A model generated the notes under the pieces. The model had not been told where the DNA came from and did not search any database. It saw only the letters and a list, made by a program, of their open reading frames with translations. Below are positions 2,187 through 11,543 of a DNA stretch of 11,607 nt, in pieces. Both the position numbers and the translations under genes were made by a program. This DNA comes from a virus, in UHGV virus genome UHGV-0096542. One strand, 5' to 3'. Numbering within the stretch: the stretch's first letter is position 1; every line of letters starts with the position of its first letter.

Positions 2187-2226
2187 TAAGCCATCAGCAG
2201 GACGCACTGACCACCATTGAAGGTGA

Positions 2227-2257
2227 TGCTCTTAAAAATTAAGCCCTGAAGAAGGGC
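2227..2257 (+). promoter_or_regulatory. nutL (boxA-like TGCTCTTA + boxB GCCCTGAAGAAGGGC)
   Basis: Sequence TGCTCTTAAAAATTAAGCCCTGAAGAAGGGC; boxB is a perfect 5-bp stem with GAAGA loop, matching lambda nutL. Confidence 0.85.
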
Positions 2258-2415
2258 AGCATTCAAAGCAGAAGGCTTTGGGGTGTGTGATACGAAACGA
2301 AGCATTGGCCGGAAGTGCGAATCCGGATTAGCTGCAAATGAGCCAATCGTGGGGTGTTTTCGTTCAGGACTACGACTCACACACACCACCAAAGCTAACT
2401 GACAAGAGAATCCAG

Positions 2416-2739
2416 ATGGATGCACAAACACGCCGCCGCGAACGTCGCGCAGAGAAACAGGCTCAATGGAAAGTAGCAAATCCCCTGTTGGTTGGGGTAA
2501 GCGCAAAACCAGTTAACCGCCCTATTCTCTCGCTGAATCGCAAACCGAAATCACGAGTAGAAAGCGCACTGAATCCGATAGACCTTACAGTGCTGGCTGA
2601 ATACCACGAACAGATTGAAAGCAACCTGCAACGTATTGAGCGCAAGAATCAGCGCACATGGTACAGCAAGCCTGGCGAACGCGGCATAACATGCAGTGGA
2701 CGCCAGAAAATTAAGGGAAAATCGATTCCTCTTACCTAG
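2416..2739 (+). CDS. N: Antitermination protein N (107 aa)
   Basis: Translation MDAQTRRRERRAEKQAQWK.ANPLLVGVSAKPVNRPILSLNRKPKSRVESALNPIDLTVLAEYH... matches lambda N (arginine-rich boxB-binding motif at N-terminus); the longer ORF from 2338 is an upstream extension. Confidence 0.95.
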   Translation: MDAQTRRRERRAEKQAQWKVANPLLVGVSAKPVNRPILSLNRKPKSRVESALNPIDLTVLAEYHEQIESNLQRIERKNQRTWYSKPGERGITCSGRQKIKGKSIPLT

Positions 2740-3294
2740 TTACTTAGATATTGGCCTTGGCTTTATCTCAATATTATATGGATCATAGCTGGCAACTAAT
2801 TCAGTCCAGTAAATATCCTCAATAGGGAATAATATATGCTTCCCGTTCCATCGGGAAAAAGTTTTGTTCAACACACCAAGCTCAATCAACTCACTAATGT
2901 ATGGGAATTGTTTTGATGTAACCACATACTTCCTGCCTTCATTAAGGGCTGCGCACAAAACCATAGATTGCTCTTCTGTAAGGTTTTGAATTACCGATCG
3001 CACTTTATCGTTTTGCATCTTAATGCGTTTTCTTAGCTTAAATCGCTTATATCTGGCGCTGGCAATAGCTGATAATCGATGCACATTAATTGCTAGCGAA
3101 AATGCAAGAGCAAAGACGAAAACATGCCACACATGAGGAATACCGATTCTCTCATTAACATATTCAGGCCAGTTATCTGGGCTTAAAAGCAGAAGTCCAA
3201 CCCAGATAACGATCATATACATGGTTCTCTCCAGAGGTTCATTACTGAACACTCGTCCGAGAATAACGAGTGGATCCATTTCTATACTCATCAA
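2740..3294 (-). CDS. sieB: Superinfection exclusion protein SieB (184 aa, membrane protein; contains the nested in-frame Esc start)
   Basis: Translation MMSIEMDPLVILGRVFSNEPLERTMYMIVIWVGLLLLSPDNWPEY... matches recalled lambda SieB; opposite strand to the pL operon as in lambda; length equals the lambda gene (555 nt). Confidence 0.9.
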   Translation of the reverse strand: MMSIEMDPLVILGRVFSNEPLERTMYMIVIWVGLLLLSPDNWPEYVNERIGIPHVWHVFVFALAFSLAINVHRLSAIASARYKRFKLRKRIKMQNDKVRSVIQNLTEEQSMVLCAALNEGRKYVVTSKQFPYISELIELGVLNKTFSRWNGKHILFPIEDIYWTELVASYDPYNIEIKPRPISK

Positions 3295-3418
3295 ACTGTA
3301 GGGGTTGTAATAGTTTATCCGATTTCTCGCTGTAGGGGTACACGAGAACCACCGAGCCTGATGTGGTTAAAAGACAGGCACAATCTTTACTACCGCAATC
3401 CACTATTTAAGGTGATAT

Positions 3419-3505
3419 ATGGAAGAAGAATTTGAAGAGTTCGAAGAGCATCCGCAGGATGTAATGGAACAGTACCAGGACTATCCGTATGACTACGACT
3501 ATTGA
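3419..3505 (+). CDS. orf28: Small acidic protein orf28 (28 aa, MEEEFEEFEEHPQDVMEQYQDYPYDYDY)
   Basis: Short ORF read manually (below six-frame length cut-off); position and length match the lambda orf28 locus immediately upstream of and overlapping ral. Confidence 0.55.
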   Translation: MEEEFEEFEEHPQDVMEQYQDYPYDYDY

Positions 3506-3668
3506 TAAGAATCAATGGTGTGGACAATTCAAGCGATGCAATGGATGCAAGCTGCAATCGGAATGCATGGTTAAGCCTGAAGAAATGTTTCCTGTAATAG
3601 AAGATGGGAAATATGTCGATAAATGGGCAATACGAACGACGGCAATGATTGCCAGAGAACTTGGTTAA
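3489..3668 (+). CDS. ral: Restriction alleviation protein Ral, apparently truncated to 59 aa by an in-frame TAA (lambda-length reading frame would end at 3689)
   Basis: Translation MTTTIDKNQWCGQFKRCNGCKLQSECMVKPEEMFPVIEDGKYVDKWAIRTTAMIARELG then TAA at 3666..3668, followed in frame by QNNKAA + TGA at 3687..3689. Confidence 0.8.
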   Translation: MTTTIDKNQWCGQFKRCNGCKLQSECMVKPEEMFPVIEDGKYVDKWAIRTTAMIARELG

Positions 3669-3825
3669 CAGAACAACAAAGCTGCCTGATAGTGGCCTTT
3701 ATTTTTGGCATAAATAACAGAATAAACACTGCACTGTGTATTCATTCCAACGAGTGAATACACGGAGCAATGTCGCTCGTAACTAAACAGGAGCCGACTT
3801 GTTCTGATTATTGGAAATCTTCTTT

Positions 3826-3851
3826 GCCCTCCAGTGTGAGGGCGATTTTTT
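3826..3851 (+). terminator. Intrinsic terminator-like hairpin (GCCCTC-N6-GAGGGC followed by T-run) within the pL operon upstream of ea10; expected to be read through under N antitermination
   Basis: Perfect 6-bp GC-rich inverted repeat 3826..3831/3838..3843 followed by GATTTTTTAT. Confidence 0.45.
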
Positions 3852-3871
3852 ATCTATGAGGATATGAACAG

Positions 3872-4240
3872 ATGTCAAACATCAAAAAATACATCATTGA
3901 TTACGACTGGAAAGCATCAATAGAAATTGAAATCGACCATGACGTAATGACAGAGGAAAAACTTCACCAGATTAATAATTTCTGGTCAGACTCTGAATAC
4001 CGACTCAATAAACACGGCTCTGTATTAAATGCTGTATTAATCATGCTGGCGCAATATGCTCTGCTTATAGCAATTTCGAAAGACTTAAATGCATATGGTG
4101 TTGTTTGTGAGTTCGACTGGGATGATGGAAATGGTCAGGAAGGATGGCCTCCAATGGATGGTAGTGAAGGAATAAGAATTACCGATATCGATACATCAGG
4201 AATATTTGATTCAGATGATATGACTATCAAGGCCGCCTGA
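3872..4240 (+). CDS. ea10: Ea10 early protein (122 aa; lambda Ea10/ssb-like)
   Basis: ORF with RBS-like GAGGATATGAACAGATG context; position and length (369 nt) identical to the lambda ea10 locus between ral and cIII. Confidence 0.85.
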   Translation: MSNIKKYIIDYDWKASIEIEIDHDVMTEEKLHQINNFWSDSEYRLNKHGSVLNAVLIMLAQYALLIAISKDLNAYGVVCEFDWDDGNGQEGWPPMDGSEGIRITDIDTSGIFDSDDMTIKAA

Positions 4241-4312
4241 GTGCGGTTTTACCGCATACCAATAACGCTTCACTCGAGGCGTTTTTCGTTATGTATAAAT
4301 AAGGAGCACACC

Positions 4313-4477
4313 ATGCAATATGCCATTGCAGGGTGGCCTGTTGCTGGCTGCCCTTCCGAATCTTTACTTGAACGAATCACCCGTAAATTACGTGACGGAT
4401 GGAAACGCCTTATCGACATACTTAATCAGCCAGGAGTCCCAAAGAATGGATCAAACACTTATGGCTATCCAGACTAA
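4313..4477 (+). CDS. cIII: CIII protease inhibitor (54 aa, anti-FtsH)
   Basis: Translation [54 protein letters not shown] matches lambda CIII; AAGGAG RBS upstream; the ORF from 4241 is an upstream extension. Confidence 0.95.
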   Translation: MQYAIAGWPVAGCPSESLLERITRKLRDGWKRLIDILNQPGVPKNGSNTYGYPD

Positions 4478-4589
4478 ATTCACTATCGCCACTTTTATTG
4501 GCGATGAAAAGATGTTTCGTGAAGCCGTCGACGCTTATAAAAAATGGATATTAATGCTGAAACTGAGATCAAGCAAAAGCATTCACTAA
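4446..4589 (+). CDS. kil: Kil host-killing protein (47 aa, FtsZ inhibitor), overlapping the cIII 3' end
   Basis: Translation [47 protein letters not shown]; length and overlap with cIII as in lambda. Confidence 0.85.
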
Positions 4590-4960
4590 CCCCCTTTCCT
4601 GTTTTCCTAATCAGCCTGGCATTTCGCGGGCGATATTTTCACAGCTATTTCAGGAGTTCAGCCATGAACGCTTATTACATTCAGGATCGTCTTGAGGCTC
4701 AGAGCTGGGCGCGTCACTACCAGCAGATCGCCCGAGAAGAGAAAGAGGCAGAACTGGCAGACGACATGGAAAAAGGCCTGCCCCAGCACCTGTTTGAATC
4801 GCTATGCATCGATCATTTGCAACGCCACGGGGCCAGCAAAAAAGCCATTACCCGTGCGTTTGATGACGATGTTGAGTTTCAGGAGCGCATGGCAGAACAC
4901 ATCCGGTACATGGTTGAAACCATTGCTCACCATCAGGTTGATATTGATTCAGAGGTATAA
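4544..4960 (+). CDS. gam: Gam RecBCD inhibitor (138 aa; internal start MNAYYIQ... at codon 41 gives the GamS form)
   Basis: Translation ...[98 protein letters not shown] matches lambda Gam. Confidence 0.95.
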
Positions 4961-4965
4961 AACGG

Positions 4966-5751
4966 ATGAGTACAGCACTCGCAACGCTGGCTGGGAAGCT
5001 GGCTGAACGAGTCGGCATGGATTCTGTCGACCCACAGGAACTGATCACCACTCTTCGCCAGACGGCATTTAAAGGTGATGCCAGCGATGCGCAGTTCATC
5101 GCATTGCTGATCGTCGCCAACCAGTACGGTCTTAATCCGTGGACGAAAGAAATTTACGCCTTCCCTGATAAGCAGAACGGCATCGTTCCGGTGGTGGGCG
5201 TTGATGGCTGGTCCCGCATCATCAACGAAAACCAGCAGTTTGACGGCATGGACTTTGAACAGGACAACGAATCCTGCACATGCCGGATTTACCGCAAGGA
5301 CCGTAATCATCCGATCTGCGTTACCGAGTGGATGGATGAATGCCGCCGCGAACCATTCAAAACCCGCGAAGGCAGAGAAATCACGGGGCCGTGGCAGTCG
5401 CATCCCAAACGGATGTTACGGCATAAAGCCATGATTCAGTGTGCCCGTCTCGCCTTCGGATTTGCTGGTATCTATGACAAGGATGAAGCCGAGCGCATTG
5501 TCGAAAATACTGCATACACTGCAGAACGTCAGCCGGAACGCGACATCACTCCGGTTAACGATGAAACCATGCAGGAGATTAACACTCTGCTGATCGCCCT
5601 GGATAAAACATGGGATGACGACTTATTGCCGCTCTGTTCCCAGATATTTCGCCGCGACATTCGCGCATCGTCAGAACTGACACAGGCCGAAGCAGTGAAA
5701 GCTCTTGGATTCCTGAAACAGAAAGCCACTGAGCAGAAGGTGGCAGCATGA
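4966..5751 (+). CDS. bet: Red beta single-strand annealing recombinase (261 aa)
   Basis: Translation [82 protein letters not shown]... matches lambda Beta; stop overlaps exo start. Confidence 0.97.
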
Positions 5752-6428
5752 CACCGGACATTATCCTGCAGCGTACCGGGATCGACGTGAGAGCTGTCGA
5801 ACAGGGGGATGATGCATGGCACAAATTACGGCTCGGCGTCATCACCGCTTCAGAAGTTCACAACGTGATAGCAAAGCCCCGATCAGGAAAGAAGTGGCCT
5901 GACATGAAAATGTCCTACTTCCACACCCTGCTAGCTGAGGTTTGCACCGGTGTGGCTCCGGAAGTTAACGCTAAAGCGCTGGCCTGGGGAAAACAGTACG
6001 AGAACGACGCCAGAACCCTGTTTGAGTTCACTTCCGGCGTAAATGTTATTGAATCCCCGATCATCTATCGCGACGAAAGTATGCGCACCGCCTGCTCTCC
6101 CGATGGTTTATGCAGTGACGGCAATGGCCTTGAGCTGAAATGCCCGTTTACCTCCCGGGATTTCATGAAATTCCGGCTCGGTGGTTTCGAGGCCATAAAG
6201 TCGGCTTACATGGCCCAGGTGCAGTACAGCATGTGGGTGACGCGAAAAGATGCCTGGTACTTTGCCAACTATGACCCGCGTATGAAGCGTGAAGGCCTGC
6301 ATTATGTCGTGATTGAGCGGAATGAAAAGTATATAGCGAGTTTTGACGAGATGGTGCCGGAGTTCATCGAGAAAATGGACGAGGCACTGGCTGAAATTGG
6401 TTTTGTATTTGGGGAGCAATGGCGATGA
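5748..6428 (+). CDS. exo: Lambda exonuclease (Red alpha, 226 aa)
   Basis: Translation [69 protein letters not shown]... matches lambda Exo; ATGA overlap with bet. Confidence 0.97.
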
Positions 6429-6607
6429 AACATCCTCACGATAATATCCGCGTAGGCACGATCACTTTCGTCTACTCCGTTACGAAGCGAGGCTGGGTAT
6501 TTCCCGGCCTTTCTGTTATCCGAAATCCCCTGAAAGCACAGCGGCTGGCTGAGGAGATAAATAATAAACGGGGAGCTGTATGCACAAAGCATCTCCCGTT
6601 GAGTTAA
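6425..6607 (+). CDS. orf60a: Early-left operon small protein orf60a (60 aa)
   Basis: [63 protein letters not shown]; position and length match the lambda orf60a locus, overlapping the exo stop. Confidence 0.75.
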
Positions 6608-6771
6608 GAACGAGTATCGAGATGGCACATAGCCTCGCTCAAATTGGAGTCAGGTTTGTGCCAATACCAGTAGAAACAGACGAAGAATTTCATACGTTAG
6701 CCGCATCCCTTTCACAAAAGCTGGAAATGATGGTGGCGAAAGCAGAAGCAGATGAGAGAGACCAGGTATGA
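6580..6771 (+). CDS. orf63: Early-left operon small protein orf63 (63 aa)
   Basis: [66 protein letters not shown]; position and length match the lambda orf63 locus. Confidence 0.75.
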   Translation: MHKASPVELRTSIEMAHSLAQIGVRFVPIPVETDEEFHTLAASLSQKLEMMVAKAEADERDQV

Positions 6772-7063
6772 CAACCACGGAATGCATTTTTCTGGCAGCG
6801 GGCTTCATATTCTGTGTGCTTATGCTTGCCGACATGGGACTTGTTCAATGACACCTCAGCAGGAAAACGCCCTTCGCAGCATTGCCCGTCAGGCTAATTC
6901 TGAAATCAAAAAAGCCAGACAGCAGTTTCCGGATAAAAACGTCGATGACATTTGCCGTAGCGTACTGAAGAAGCACCGCGAAACGGTAACGCTGATGGGA
7001 TTCACACCGACTCATTTAAGCCTGGCAATCGGCATGTTAAACGGCGTCTTTAAGGAACGATGA
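6752..7063 (+). CDS. orf61: orf61-like early protein, here open for 103 codons (lambda reference orf61 is 61 aa from the same start); alternative internal start at 6848 (MTPQQENALRSIARQ..., 71 aa)
   Basis: Start overlaps the orf63 3' end by 20 nt, the same arrangement as lambda orf61/orf63; codon 62 is AAA where the lambda-length gene would stop. Confidence 0.55.
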   Translation: MRETRYDNHGMHFSGSGLHILCAYACRHGTCSMTPQQENALRSIARQANSEIKKARQQFPDKNVDDICRSVLKKHRETVTLMGFTPTHLSLAIGMLNGVFKER

Positions 7064-7085
7064 ACATGAAAAGCAAAATCATCAG

Positions 7086-7106
7086 GGAGCTACAGGCTCC
7101 TTTTTT
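7086..7106 (+). terminator. Terminator-like hairpin (GGAGC-TACAG-GCTCC followed by TTTTTTATT) between orf61 and orf73
   Basis: 5-bp GC-rich inverted repeat followed by a T6 run; a 29-codon ORF (7066..7155) overlaps it but the hairpin plus T-tract fits a terminator better. Confidence 0.35.
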
Positions 7107-7161
7107 ATTATTCGCATTCACCCTCAAGCGTATTAACCAACAATTCAGGGATTAATGGAAG

Positions 7162-7383
7162 ATGGCAGACATCATTGATTCAGCATCAGAAATTGAAGAA
7201 TTACAGCGCAACACAGCAATAAAAATGCGCCGCCTGAACCACCAGGCTATATCTGCCACTCATTGTTGTGAGTGTGGCGATCCGATAGATGAACGAAGAC
7301 GCCTGGTCGTTCAGGGTTGTCGGACTTGTGCAAGTTGCCAGGAGGATCTGGAGCTTATCAGTAAACAGAGAGGTTCGAAGTGA
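7162..7383 (+). CDS. orf73: TraR/DksA-family C4 zinc-finger protein (lambda orf73-like, 73 aa), RNA polymerase secondary-channel binding regulator
   Basis: Translation MADIIDSASEIEELQRNTAIKMRRLNHQAISATHCCECGDPIDERRRLVVQGCRTCASCQEDLELISKQRGSK has the CxxC-N17-CxxC pattern (C-E-C ... C-A-S-C) and size typical of TraR-like proteins. Confidence 0.8.
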   Translation: MADIIDSASEIEELQRNTAIKMRRLNHQAISATHCCECGDPIDERRRLVVQGCRTCASCQEDLELISKQRGSK

Positions 7384-7535
7384 GCGAAATTAACTAGAAG
7401 CCAAAGATAAAATCATCGCTGAGCAGGAGAAAATCGCTAACGGAGAAAAGACAGTAAGTCAGTATATGAAAACCGCATGATATCATCAGATAAAAATCGG
7501 TCGTAGAGCAAAATATTAATACCAGAACAAACGAG

Positions 7536-7559
7536 TCGAGGTAAATTATATTACCTCGA
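7536..7559 (-). terminator. Hairpin (9-bp stem TCGAGGTAA / TTACCTCGA, 6-nt loop) immediately downstream of the minus-strand membrane-protein gene; candidate terminator for that gene
   Basis: Perfect 9-bp inverted repeat 7536..7544/7551..7559 about 35 nt beyond the stop codon at 7594..7596; followed on the minus strand by a moderately U-rich tract (CUCGUUUGUUCUG). Confidence 0.4.
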
Positions 7560-7593
7560 TAAATTAACTAAAACTTGCCCGCTATATACTATA

Positions 7594-8196
7594 TCATTCA
7601 GTATCATCACGCACGGTCTGTGCATATGTCACTACCGCACCTAATATATTAATTTTCTTTTCAACATAGATAATATTATCGTACTCATAATTGCCATACG
7701 GATAGCAAATGCGAATATTCTCATGTAGATCGGGGTCATCCACCTCAGCGCCAGAACAACTTTTTGAACTACCGGAAGTATACCGATACGGTGCAACATA
7801 AGACGATGTCTCTCCAGGCAAAAAATAAGTTAGTGTCGTAAGGGGTATAATCAGAAAAAATCCAGCAAATATGCACATCCCTGCATAAACCTTAAGGTAT
7901 GCTGACAGACTCTTCCAGCCTCTTTGTTTTACTATCCCCTTCTTAACCCAAAACAGAGATAACAGAAAAGCTATTCCCATGCTAAACAGAATGTAATAGT
8001 GGGATATACTCTGATTAAGAAACGTGACCCTGTAGATATCTGCCCGCCACCAGAAGAAAAGGAAAATAAAGATCAGCCCTGAAACTGTCATGCAAATCAA
8101 ATAAGGATACGAATCTTTTTTCATGTTTAGCGCCCATAAAATTTTTCCTGACCCGGACAAATTTACCATCCATTTTTTGCGCAGAAAATAACTCAT
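7594..8196 (-). CDS. Hypothetical integral membrane protein (200 aa from first ATG; alternative starts at codons 10 and 25), three predicted TM helices plus a ~75-aa C-terminal domain; antisense to the pL operon in the ea22/ea8.5 slot
   Basis: Long uninterrupted minus-strand ORF in a markedly AT-rich segment; hydrophobic stretches YLICMTVSGLIFIFLFFWW, YYILFSMGIAFLLSLFWV, VYAGMCIFAGFFLIIPLTTLTYFL; followed by a hairpin; no resemblance to lambda proteins I know. Confidence 0.7.
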   Translation of the reverse strand: MSYFLRKKWMVNLSGSGKILWALNMKKDSYPYLICMTVSGLIFIFLFFWWRADIYRVTFLNQSISHYYILFSMGIAFLLSLFWVKKGIVKQRGWKSLSAYLKVYAGMCIFAGFFLIIPLTTLTYFLPGETSSYVAPYRYTSGSSKSCSGAEVDDPDLHENIRICYPYGNYEYDNIIYVEKKINILGAVVTYAQTVRDDTE

Positions 8197-8438
8197 TACT
8201 TACTGCACAATAATACACAAAATTGCGTAAATTTTTTGCATGGATTTTAGCTCTTTCAGCCGACATTTAAGGGGTAAATAGCATTTCCTAAAAGCAACTG
8301 CACCAACCCAACAGAATGGGCTACCGCTTACGTTGAGAGCAAAAAAGTGTATAGCAGCAATGAACAGCATCCTCGCACTGACGAGGATTTCTTTTATCTG
8401 AACTCGCTACGGCGGGTTTTGTTTTATGGAGATGATAA

Positions 8439-11346: not shown

Positions 11347-11543
<197 letters not shown>

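Follow-up and report, generated by a model that had tools for sequence, protein, structure and literature searches.

An early stop codon in the ral gene of a 434-immunity prophage is a naturally circulating short allele of lambdoid ral

The window, i.e. the whole stretch of 11,607 nucleotides that was analysed (UHGV virus genome UHGV-0096542), is a prophage with 434 immunity that lies beside ybhC, in the lambda attachment site (attB) of an Escherichia coli chromosome. Its ral gene occupies 3489..3668 on the plus strand; the frame opens with ATG at 3489, runs for 59 sense codons and ends in a TAA stop (3666..3668), as given by the list of open reading frames, the Pfam match and database copies. 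The encoded protein is MTTTIDKNQWCGQFKRCNGCKLQSECMVKPEEMFPVIEDGKYVDKWAIRTTAMIARELG. Upstream lie sieB (2740..3294, minus strand) and orf28 (3419..3505, plus strand) and downstream ea10, which starts at 3872; all offsets are those of lambda, and ral is found between N/sieB/orf28 and ea10/cIII on the strand transcribed from pL, with lambda spacing. The orf28 frame encodes a very acidic peptide of 28 residues, MEEEFEEFEEHPQDVMEQYQDYPYDYDY, and shares 17 nt with the start of ral, as in lambda; it matches nothing in Pfam. At the nucleotide level orf28 departs from lambda at three sites, all of them synonymous in the orf28 frame, which hints at purifying selection on this tiny open reading frame. 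A terminator-like hairpin followed by a T-run (3824..3855, plus strand) separates ral from ea10 and is unaffected by the substitution described below.

The window is a relative of lambda and not lambda itself. Alignment of window positions 2192..7395 to lambda NC_001416 gives 98.08% identity with 98 mismatches in 5.2 kb, a divergence of about 1.9% across the pL operon. Only two single-base gaps occur, at 2218 and 6907, so that the interval from 2219 to 6906, N to exo, is free of indels; the claim of an earlier sequence-only reading that this region keeps the spacing of lambda is borne out. The window repressor is of the 434 type (210 aa, with HTH and Peptidase_S24 domains), and int and xis are followed by the host gene ybhC. 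A segment without lambda match (7396..8368) replaces the ea22/ea8.5 region; it contains a 200-aa open reading frame without Pfam match (7594..8196, minus strand), and just upstream of it lies a 73-aa open reading frame of the DksA/TraR zinc-finger type (7162..7383). The cIII gene has no nucleotide difference from lambda, compared with 1-21 in neighbouring genes, and the Rfam element Lambda_thermo, the cIII thermoregulator, is found at 4300..4358 (plus strand, 88.5 bits). The N reading frame (2338..2739, plus strand, 133 codons) has 8 amino-acid differences from 11 nucleotide differences, a replacement fraction far higher than that of bet (1 from 20). In the host flank beyond ybhC, an naRNA4 element (nucleoid-associated ncRNA, REP-type element) is located at 11399..11469 (minus strand, 71.9 bits).

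Within ral, three sites differ from lambda: position 3509 (synonymous, K7), position 3599 (ATG to ATA, M37I) and position 3666 (K60 to stop). This number fits the background divergence of the window. The M37I change is the second coding difference and defines a sub-variant common to 4 IMG/VR contigs. Position 3666 corresponds to lambda 34110, where lambda reads GGT AAA CAG and the window GGT TAA CAG; the T is the sole difference in this codon, which specifies Lys60 in the reference. The former 3' end of the gene (3669..3689), now untranslated, still reads Q-N-N-K-A-A followed by TGA (3687..3689) and is identical to lambda, and the distance from the ATG at 3489 through this TGA is 201 nt. The frame had been described in just these terms from the letters alone, and a length of 66 residues had been given for lambda Ral; the annotation of NC_001416 (34087..34287, 201 nt, 66 aa) agrees with it, and the pairwise alignment that had been proposed as a check places AAA, not TAA, at codon 60 of lambda. 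The same reading saw here a single nonsense substitution removing the C-terminal residues rather than a different allele. The first part stands, since relative to lambda a single AAA-to-TAA change removes residues 60-66 (KQNNKAA). The second part does not, because the short form is a widespread natural allele, and the window copy also carries M37I.

The 59-residue product belongs to the Ral family (PF11058). Its residues 1-59 match profile positions 1-59 of 66 (E 1.7e-43), with a score of 146.5 bits against a cut-off of 25; the profile C terminus, positions 60-66, is absent from the protein, which stops at 59. It is a small family, for which 1.84 billion proteins yield 37 representatives at 50% identity. 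When 30 close and 10 more distant members are aligned, the conserved features are the cysteines C11, C17, C20 and C26, the residues G40, D44, W46, R49 and I54, and a stretch ending in R56-E57-L58. The core residues C11, C17, C20, C26, G40, D44, W46, R49, I54 and E57 are all present in the window protein. Beyond L58 the family shows tails of 3 to about 10 residues without conserved sequence, for example GKQNNKAA in lambda, EKIKTA or EKLKAA in Salmonella-type homologues and ENQKKQQAA in others, and one member carries a 75-residue extension. Since positions 60-66 are conserved neither in sequence nor in length, they do not strictly define family membership. The window protein retains a single residue (G59) after L58, the shortest tail seen, whereas the other full-length members examined have at least three. 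The lost segment, K60-A66, is hydrophilic.

A search of the PDB by sequence returned no relative of Ral, and no solved Ral structure was found. The 66-aa family member P0002, which is lambda Ral carrying the single substitution A47E, was modelled with AlphaFold2, with moderate mean pLDDT (68) and a pTM of 0.34. Residues 45-65 are modelled in one C-terminal helix, with confidence dropping at its end (mean pLDDT 61 for residues 61-66 versus 79 for residues 51-60). According to this model, the truncation trims about two turns of an unconserved helix end and leaves the whole conserved core in place.

The TAA codon is not peculiar to the window. Two independent GenBank entries for the wild lambdoid phage mEp332 contain it (EF120456 and PV340541, from 2007 and 2025); each annotates a 180-nt CDS, named ral in EF120456. 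Over 401 nt, the window is 100% identical to twelve complete E. coli genomes, whose sources are human, pig, frog and seawater. Among complete E. coli records that include this part of ral, 58 of 796 carry TAA, those twelve included, as counted by exact matches to a 61-mer centred on the substitution. In IMG/VR, a 32-mer with TAA occurs on 28 contigs and the AAA version of the same 32-mer on 81. At the protein level, a collection of 15 billion proteins records the exact 59-aa sequence of the window for 370 contigs and its M37 counterpart of equal length for at least 1000, as it does the 66-aa lambda form. DNA identical to the window ral is annotated by PGAP as WP_023156163.1, an intact 'antirestriction Ral family protein' and not a pseudogene. 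The short allele is already represented under the Ral name in GenBank (EF120456, mEp332) and in RefSeq genomes, and the early stop is an ordinary, naturally circulating short allele of lambdoid ral. Searches of the literature on mEp332, Ral and HsdM brought up no mention of it, no data on C-terminal deletions and no functional test of a 59-aa form.

Within 467 bp around ral, TAA is found on at least 10 local haplotypes, several of which equal AAA haplotypes except at the substituted base, and TAA-bearing loci differ in their cI (repressor), N and sieB modules. The many haplotypes and differing flanking modules point either to an old polymorphism that recombination has shuffled or to a mutation that has recurred; in both cases TAA is a standing natural allele. 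The diversity of haplotypes, hosts and flanking genes also makes it unlikely that the database copies all derive from one contaminated source. Among the GTDB species representatives, the TAA 32-mer had no match, and an allele-neutral 26-mer matched the AAA form only, in 18 assemblies of unrelated taxa (loci L115-L132, including Pseudoxanthomonas, Nocardioides, Shewanella, Pseudomonas, Kitasatospora and Segatella assemblies). Several of these matches lie on contigs of ~48.4-48.5 kb and several on low-coverage contigs. They are almost certainly lambda control-DNA contamination in public genomes and thus teach nothing on host range.

Signs of decay were sought in the part of the gene that is still translated. 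Codons 1-59 are open in 26 of 27 IMG/VR copies with TAA and in 72 of 73 with AAA. The ratio of nonsynonymous to synonymous variants is 4:6 for TAA and 10:6 for AAA copies (Fisher p = 0.42, a comparison of very low power). These sequences give no hint that the short allele drifts like a pseudogene, although such a test is very low in power. The abandoned tail is unchanged in all 27 IMG/VR TAA copies, a figure uninformative on decay because most of its bases are fixed by the search pattern. Other damaged ral alleles do circulate, among them G19* in a copy with TAA and W10* in a copy with AAA (IMG/VR loci L012 and L099). A 49-aa Ral fragment is found on 87 contigs, and short fragments in general on up to 87. 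Clearly disruptive alleles are thus much rarer than the short allele (at most 87 contigs versus at least 1000 plus 370). Several IMG/VR copies (e.g. loci L035, L056, L078 and L082) show an internal deletion; their alignment to ral is limited to its first ~47-63 nt and its last 66 nt, and on the contig these two stretches overlap each other.

The Ral protein of lambda is made early from pL and targets the type IA restriction-modification enzymes EcoKI and EcoBI, turning a maintenance methyltransferase (M.EcoKI) into one active de novo, so that unmodified incoming DNA is methylated and not cut (PMC3874165, PMC12707154). The activity known for the 66-aa protein comprises restriction alleviation and modification enhancement (PMC3874165, PMC12707154). 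As regards the short form, the most likely course of events is an ancestral A-to-T change that turned Lys60 (AAA) into TAA, giving a protein that ends at Gly59 and lacks KQNNKAA. Recombination would then have carried this allele into many lambdoid phages and prophages of E. coli. The whole conserved core is kept, and the loss is limited to a hydrophilic tail of unconserved length and sequence. Since only this tail is lost, short Ral most likely still works like lambda Ral. We infer, with a probability of about 0.6, that it fulfils this function with its 59 residues, perhaps at somewhat lower efficiency.

The principal alternative, which we consider rather unlikely but by no means negligible, is that ral has lost its function in the short form or is strongly weakened there, which would be tolerated because the gene is accessory. 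Ral would be needed only when unmodified phage DNA enters a host with type IA restriction, and the frequency of the allele would reflect drift and hitch-hiking with successful prophages and clones. Indeed, ral is dispensable unless the host has active type I restriction (PMC10695390), so that a weakened or dead allele could also persist and hitch-hike in prophages. Moreover, other null alleles segregate (W10* and G19*, besides short fragments that tens of contigs carry), a tail of just one residue after L58 is unique among the full-length family members examined, and the C-terminal helix is predicted to lose about two turns. However, the residues removed are the unconserved ones, and the short allele is far commoner than clearly disruptive ones and is carried by many haplotypes and mosaic phage backgrounds as well as by mEp332, a plaque-forming phage. 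The absence of further decay in codons 1-59 points the same way, within the very low power of that test. A functional difference of another kind is improbable: the tail might tune which HsdM variants Ral acts on, or how strongly, in which case the 59-aa allele would be a balanced functional polymorphism. The short form would then be kept at about 7-25% of lambda-type ral copies through an altered target range or an avoided cost to the lysogen.

An effect of the substitution on DNA or RNA instead of protein is still less probable. The T at 3666 creates a GTTAAC sequence (HpaI/HincII site) and a better -35-like hexamer, TTAACA. A consensus scan gives TTAACA-17-GATAGT from 3665, with 9 of 12 matches, and a weak 5-bp hairpin with a T-run (3681..3696) lies over the lambda-type ral stop, so that translation ending earlier, 13 nt upstream of this hairpin, could alter local termination or polarity. 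Nevertheless, promoter-like hits in the region are below chance (1 found versus 2.4 expected), and a promoter or terminator created by the substitution was rejected, since matches to the consensus are no more frequent than chance predicts. Downstream genes stay clear of the site, as ea10 starts only at 3872, and pL transcripts are antiterminated by N. The related idea of stop-codon readthrough to the 66-aa form shares this low standing, UAA being the least leaky stop codon in E. coli. As for the T itself, the sequence-only reading had implied a possible read error or a private mutation of the source genome. Such an origin is hardly credible and was rejected: the 401-nt identity, including the T, extends to twelve independently assembled complete genomes, the TAA recurs in the two independent mEp332 records and on 28 IMG/VR contigs, and the exact protein occurs on 370 contigs.

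The ral stop of the window therefore calls for no correction and no pseudogene flag, and there is no sign of sequencing error. The 66-aa Ral of lambda is just one of two common natural lengths. The short form represents a ready-made natural deletion mutant that could show whether the tail matters when Ral interacts with type IA methyltransferases, a process that is still poorly understood.

Among known systems, lambda Ral (RAL_LAMBD, NP_040622.1, 66 aa; PF11058) belongs to the Pfam family of the window protein, and its gene lies at the corresponding place in the pL operon, with equal spacing between sieB/orf28 and ea10; apart from M37I, 57 of the 59 residues present are identical. It differs in that the window protein ends at G59, without K60-A66, and in M37I plus one synonymous change. 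The 59-aa Ral of mEp332 (ABO40669.1 in EF120456; XSB41010.1 in PV340541) agrees with the window in its TAA at codon 60 and in the 180-nt length of its CDS, and the surrounding 401 nt are 99.5% identical. The mEp332 protein has M37 and I53 whereas the window protein has I37 and M53, and the immunity modules differ, the mEp332 locus having no match to the 434-type cI of the window. WP_023156163.1 of E. coli prophages is the same allele in other strains, with no difference at the ral locus: over 401 nt its DNA does not differ from that of the window, the 59-aa protein is the same, and these prophages share the gene order N, sieB, ral, DUF2528 (ea10), cIII, kil, gam, bet. Some Ral homologues of Pantoea and Erwinia (P0041 and P0058) are by nature short, likewise 59 aa long, and end soon after R-E-L. 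However, they are 67-74% identical, have a shorter N terminus and end in RELAAM or RELAAK, thereby keeping three residues (AAM/AAK) after L58 where the window protein keeps one, and their short tail is the native end of the gene and not a nonsense codon inside a longer frame.
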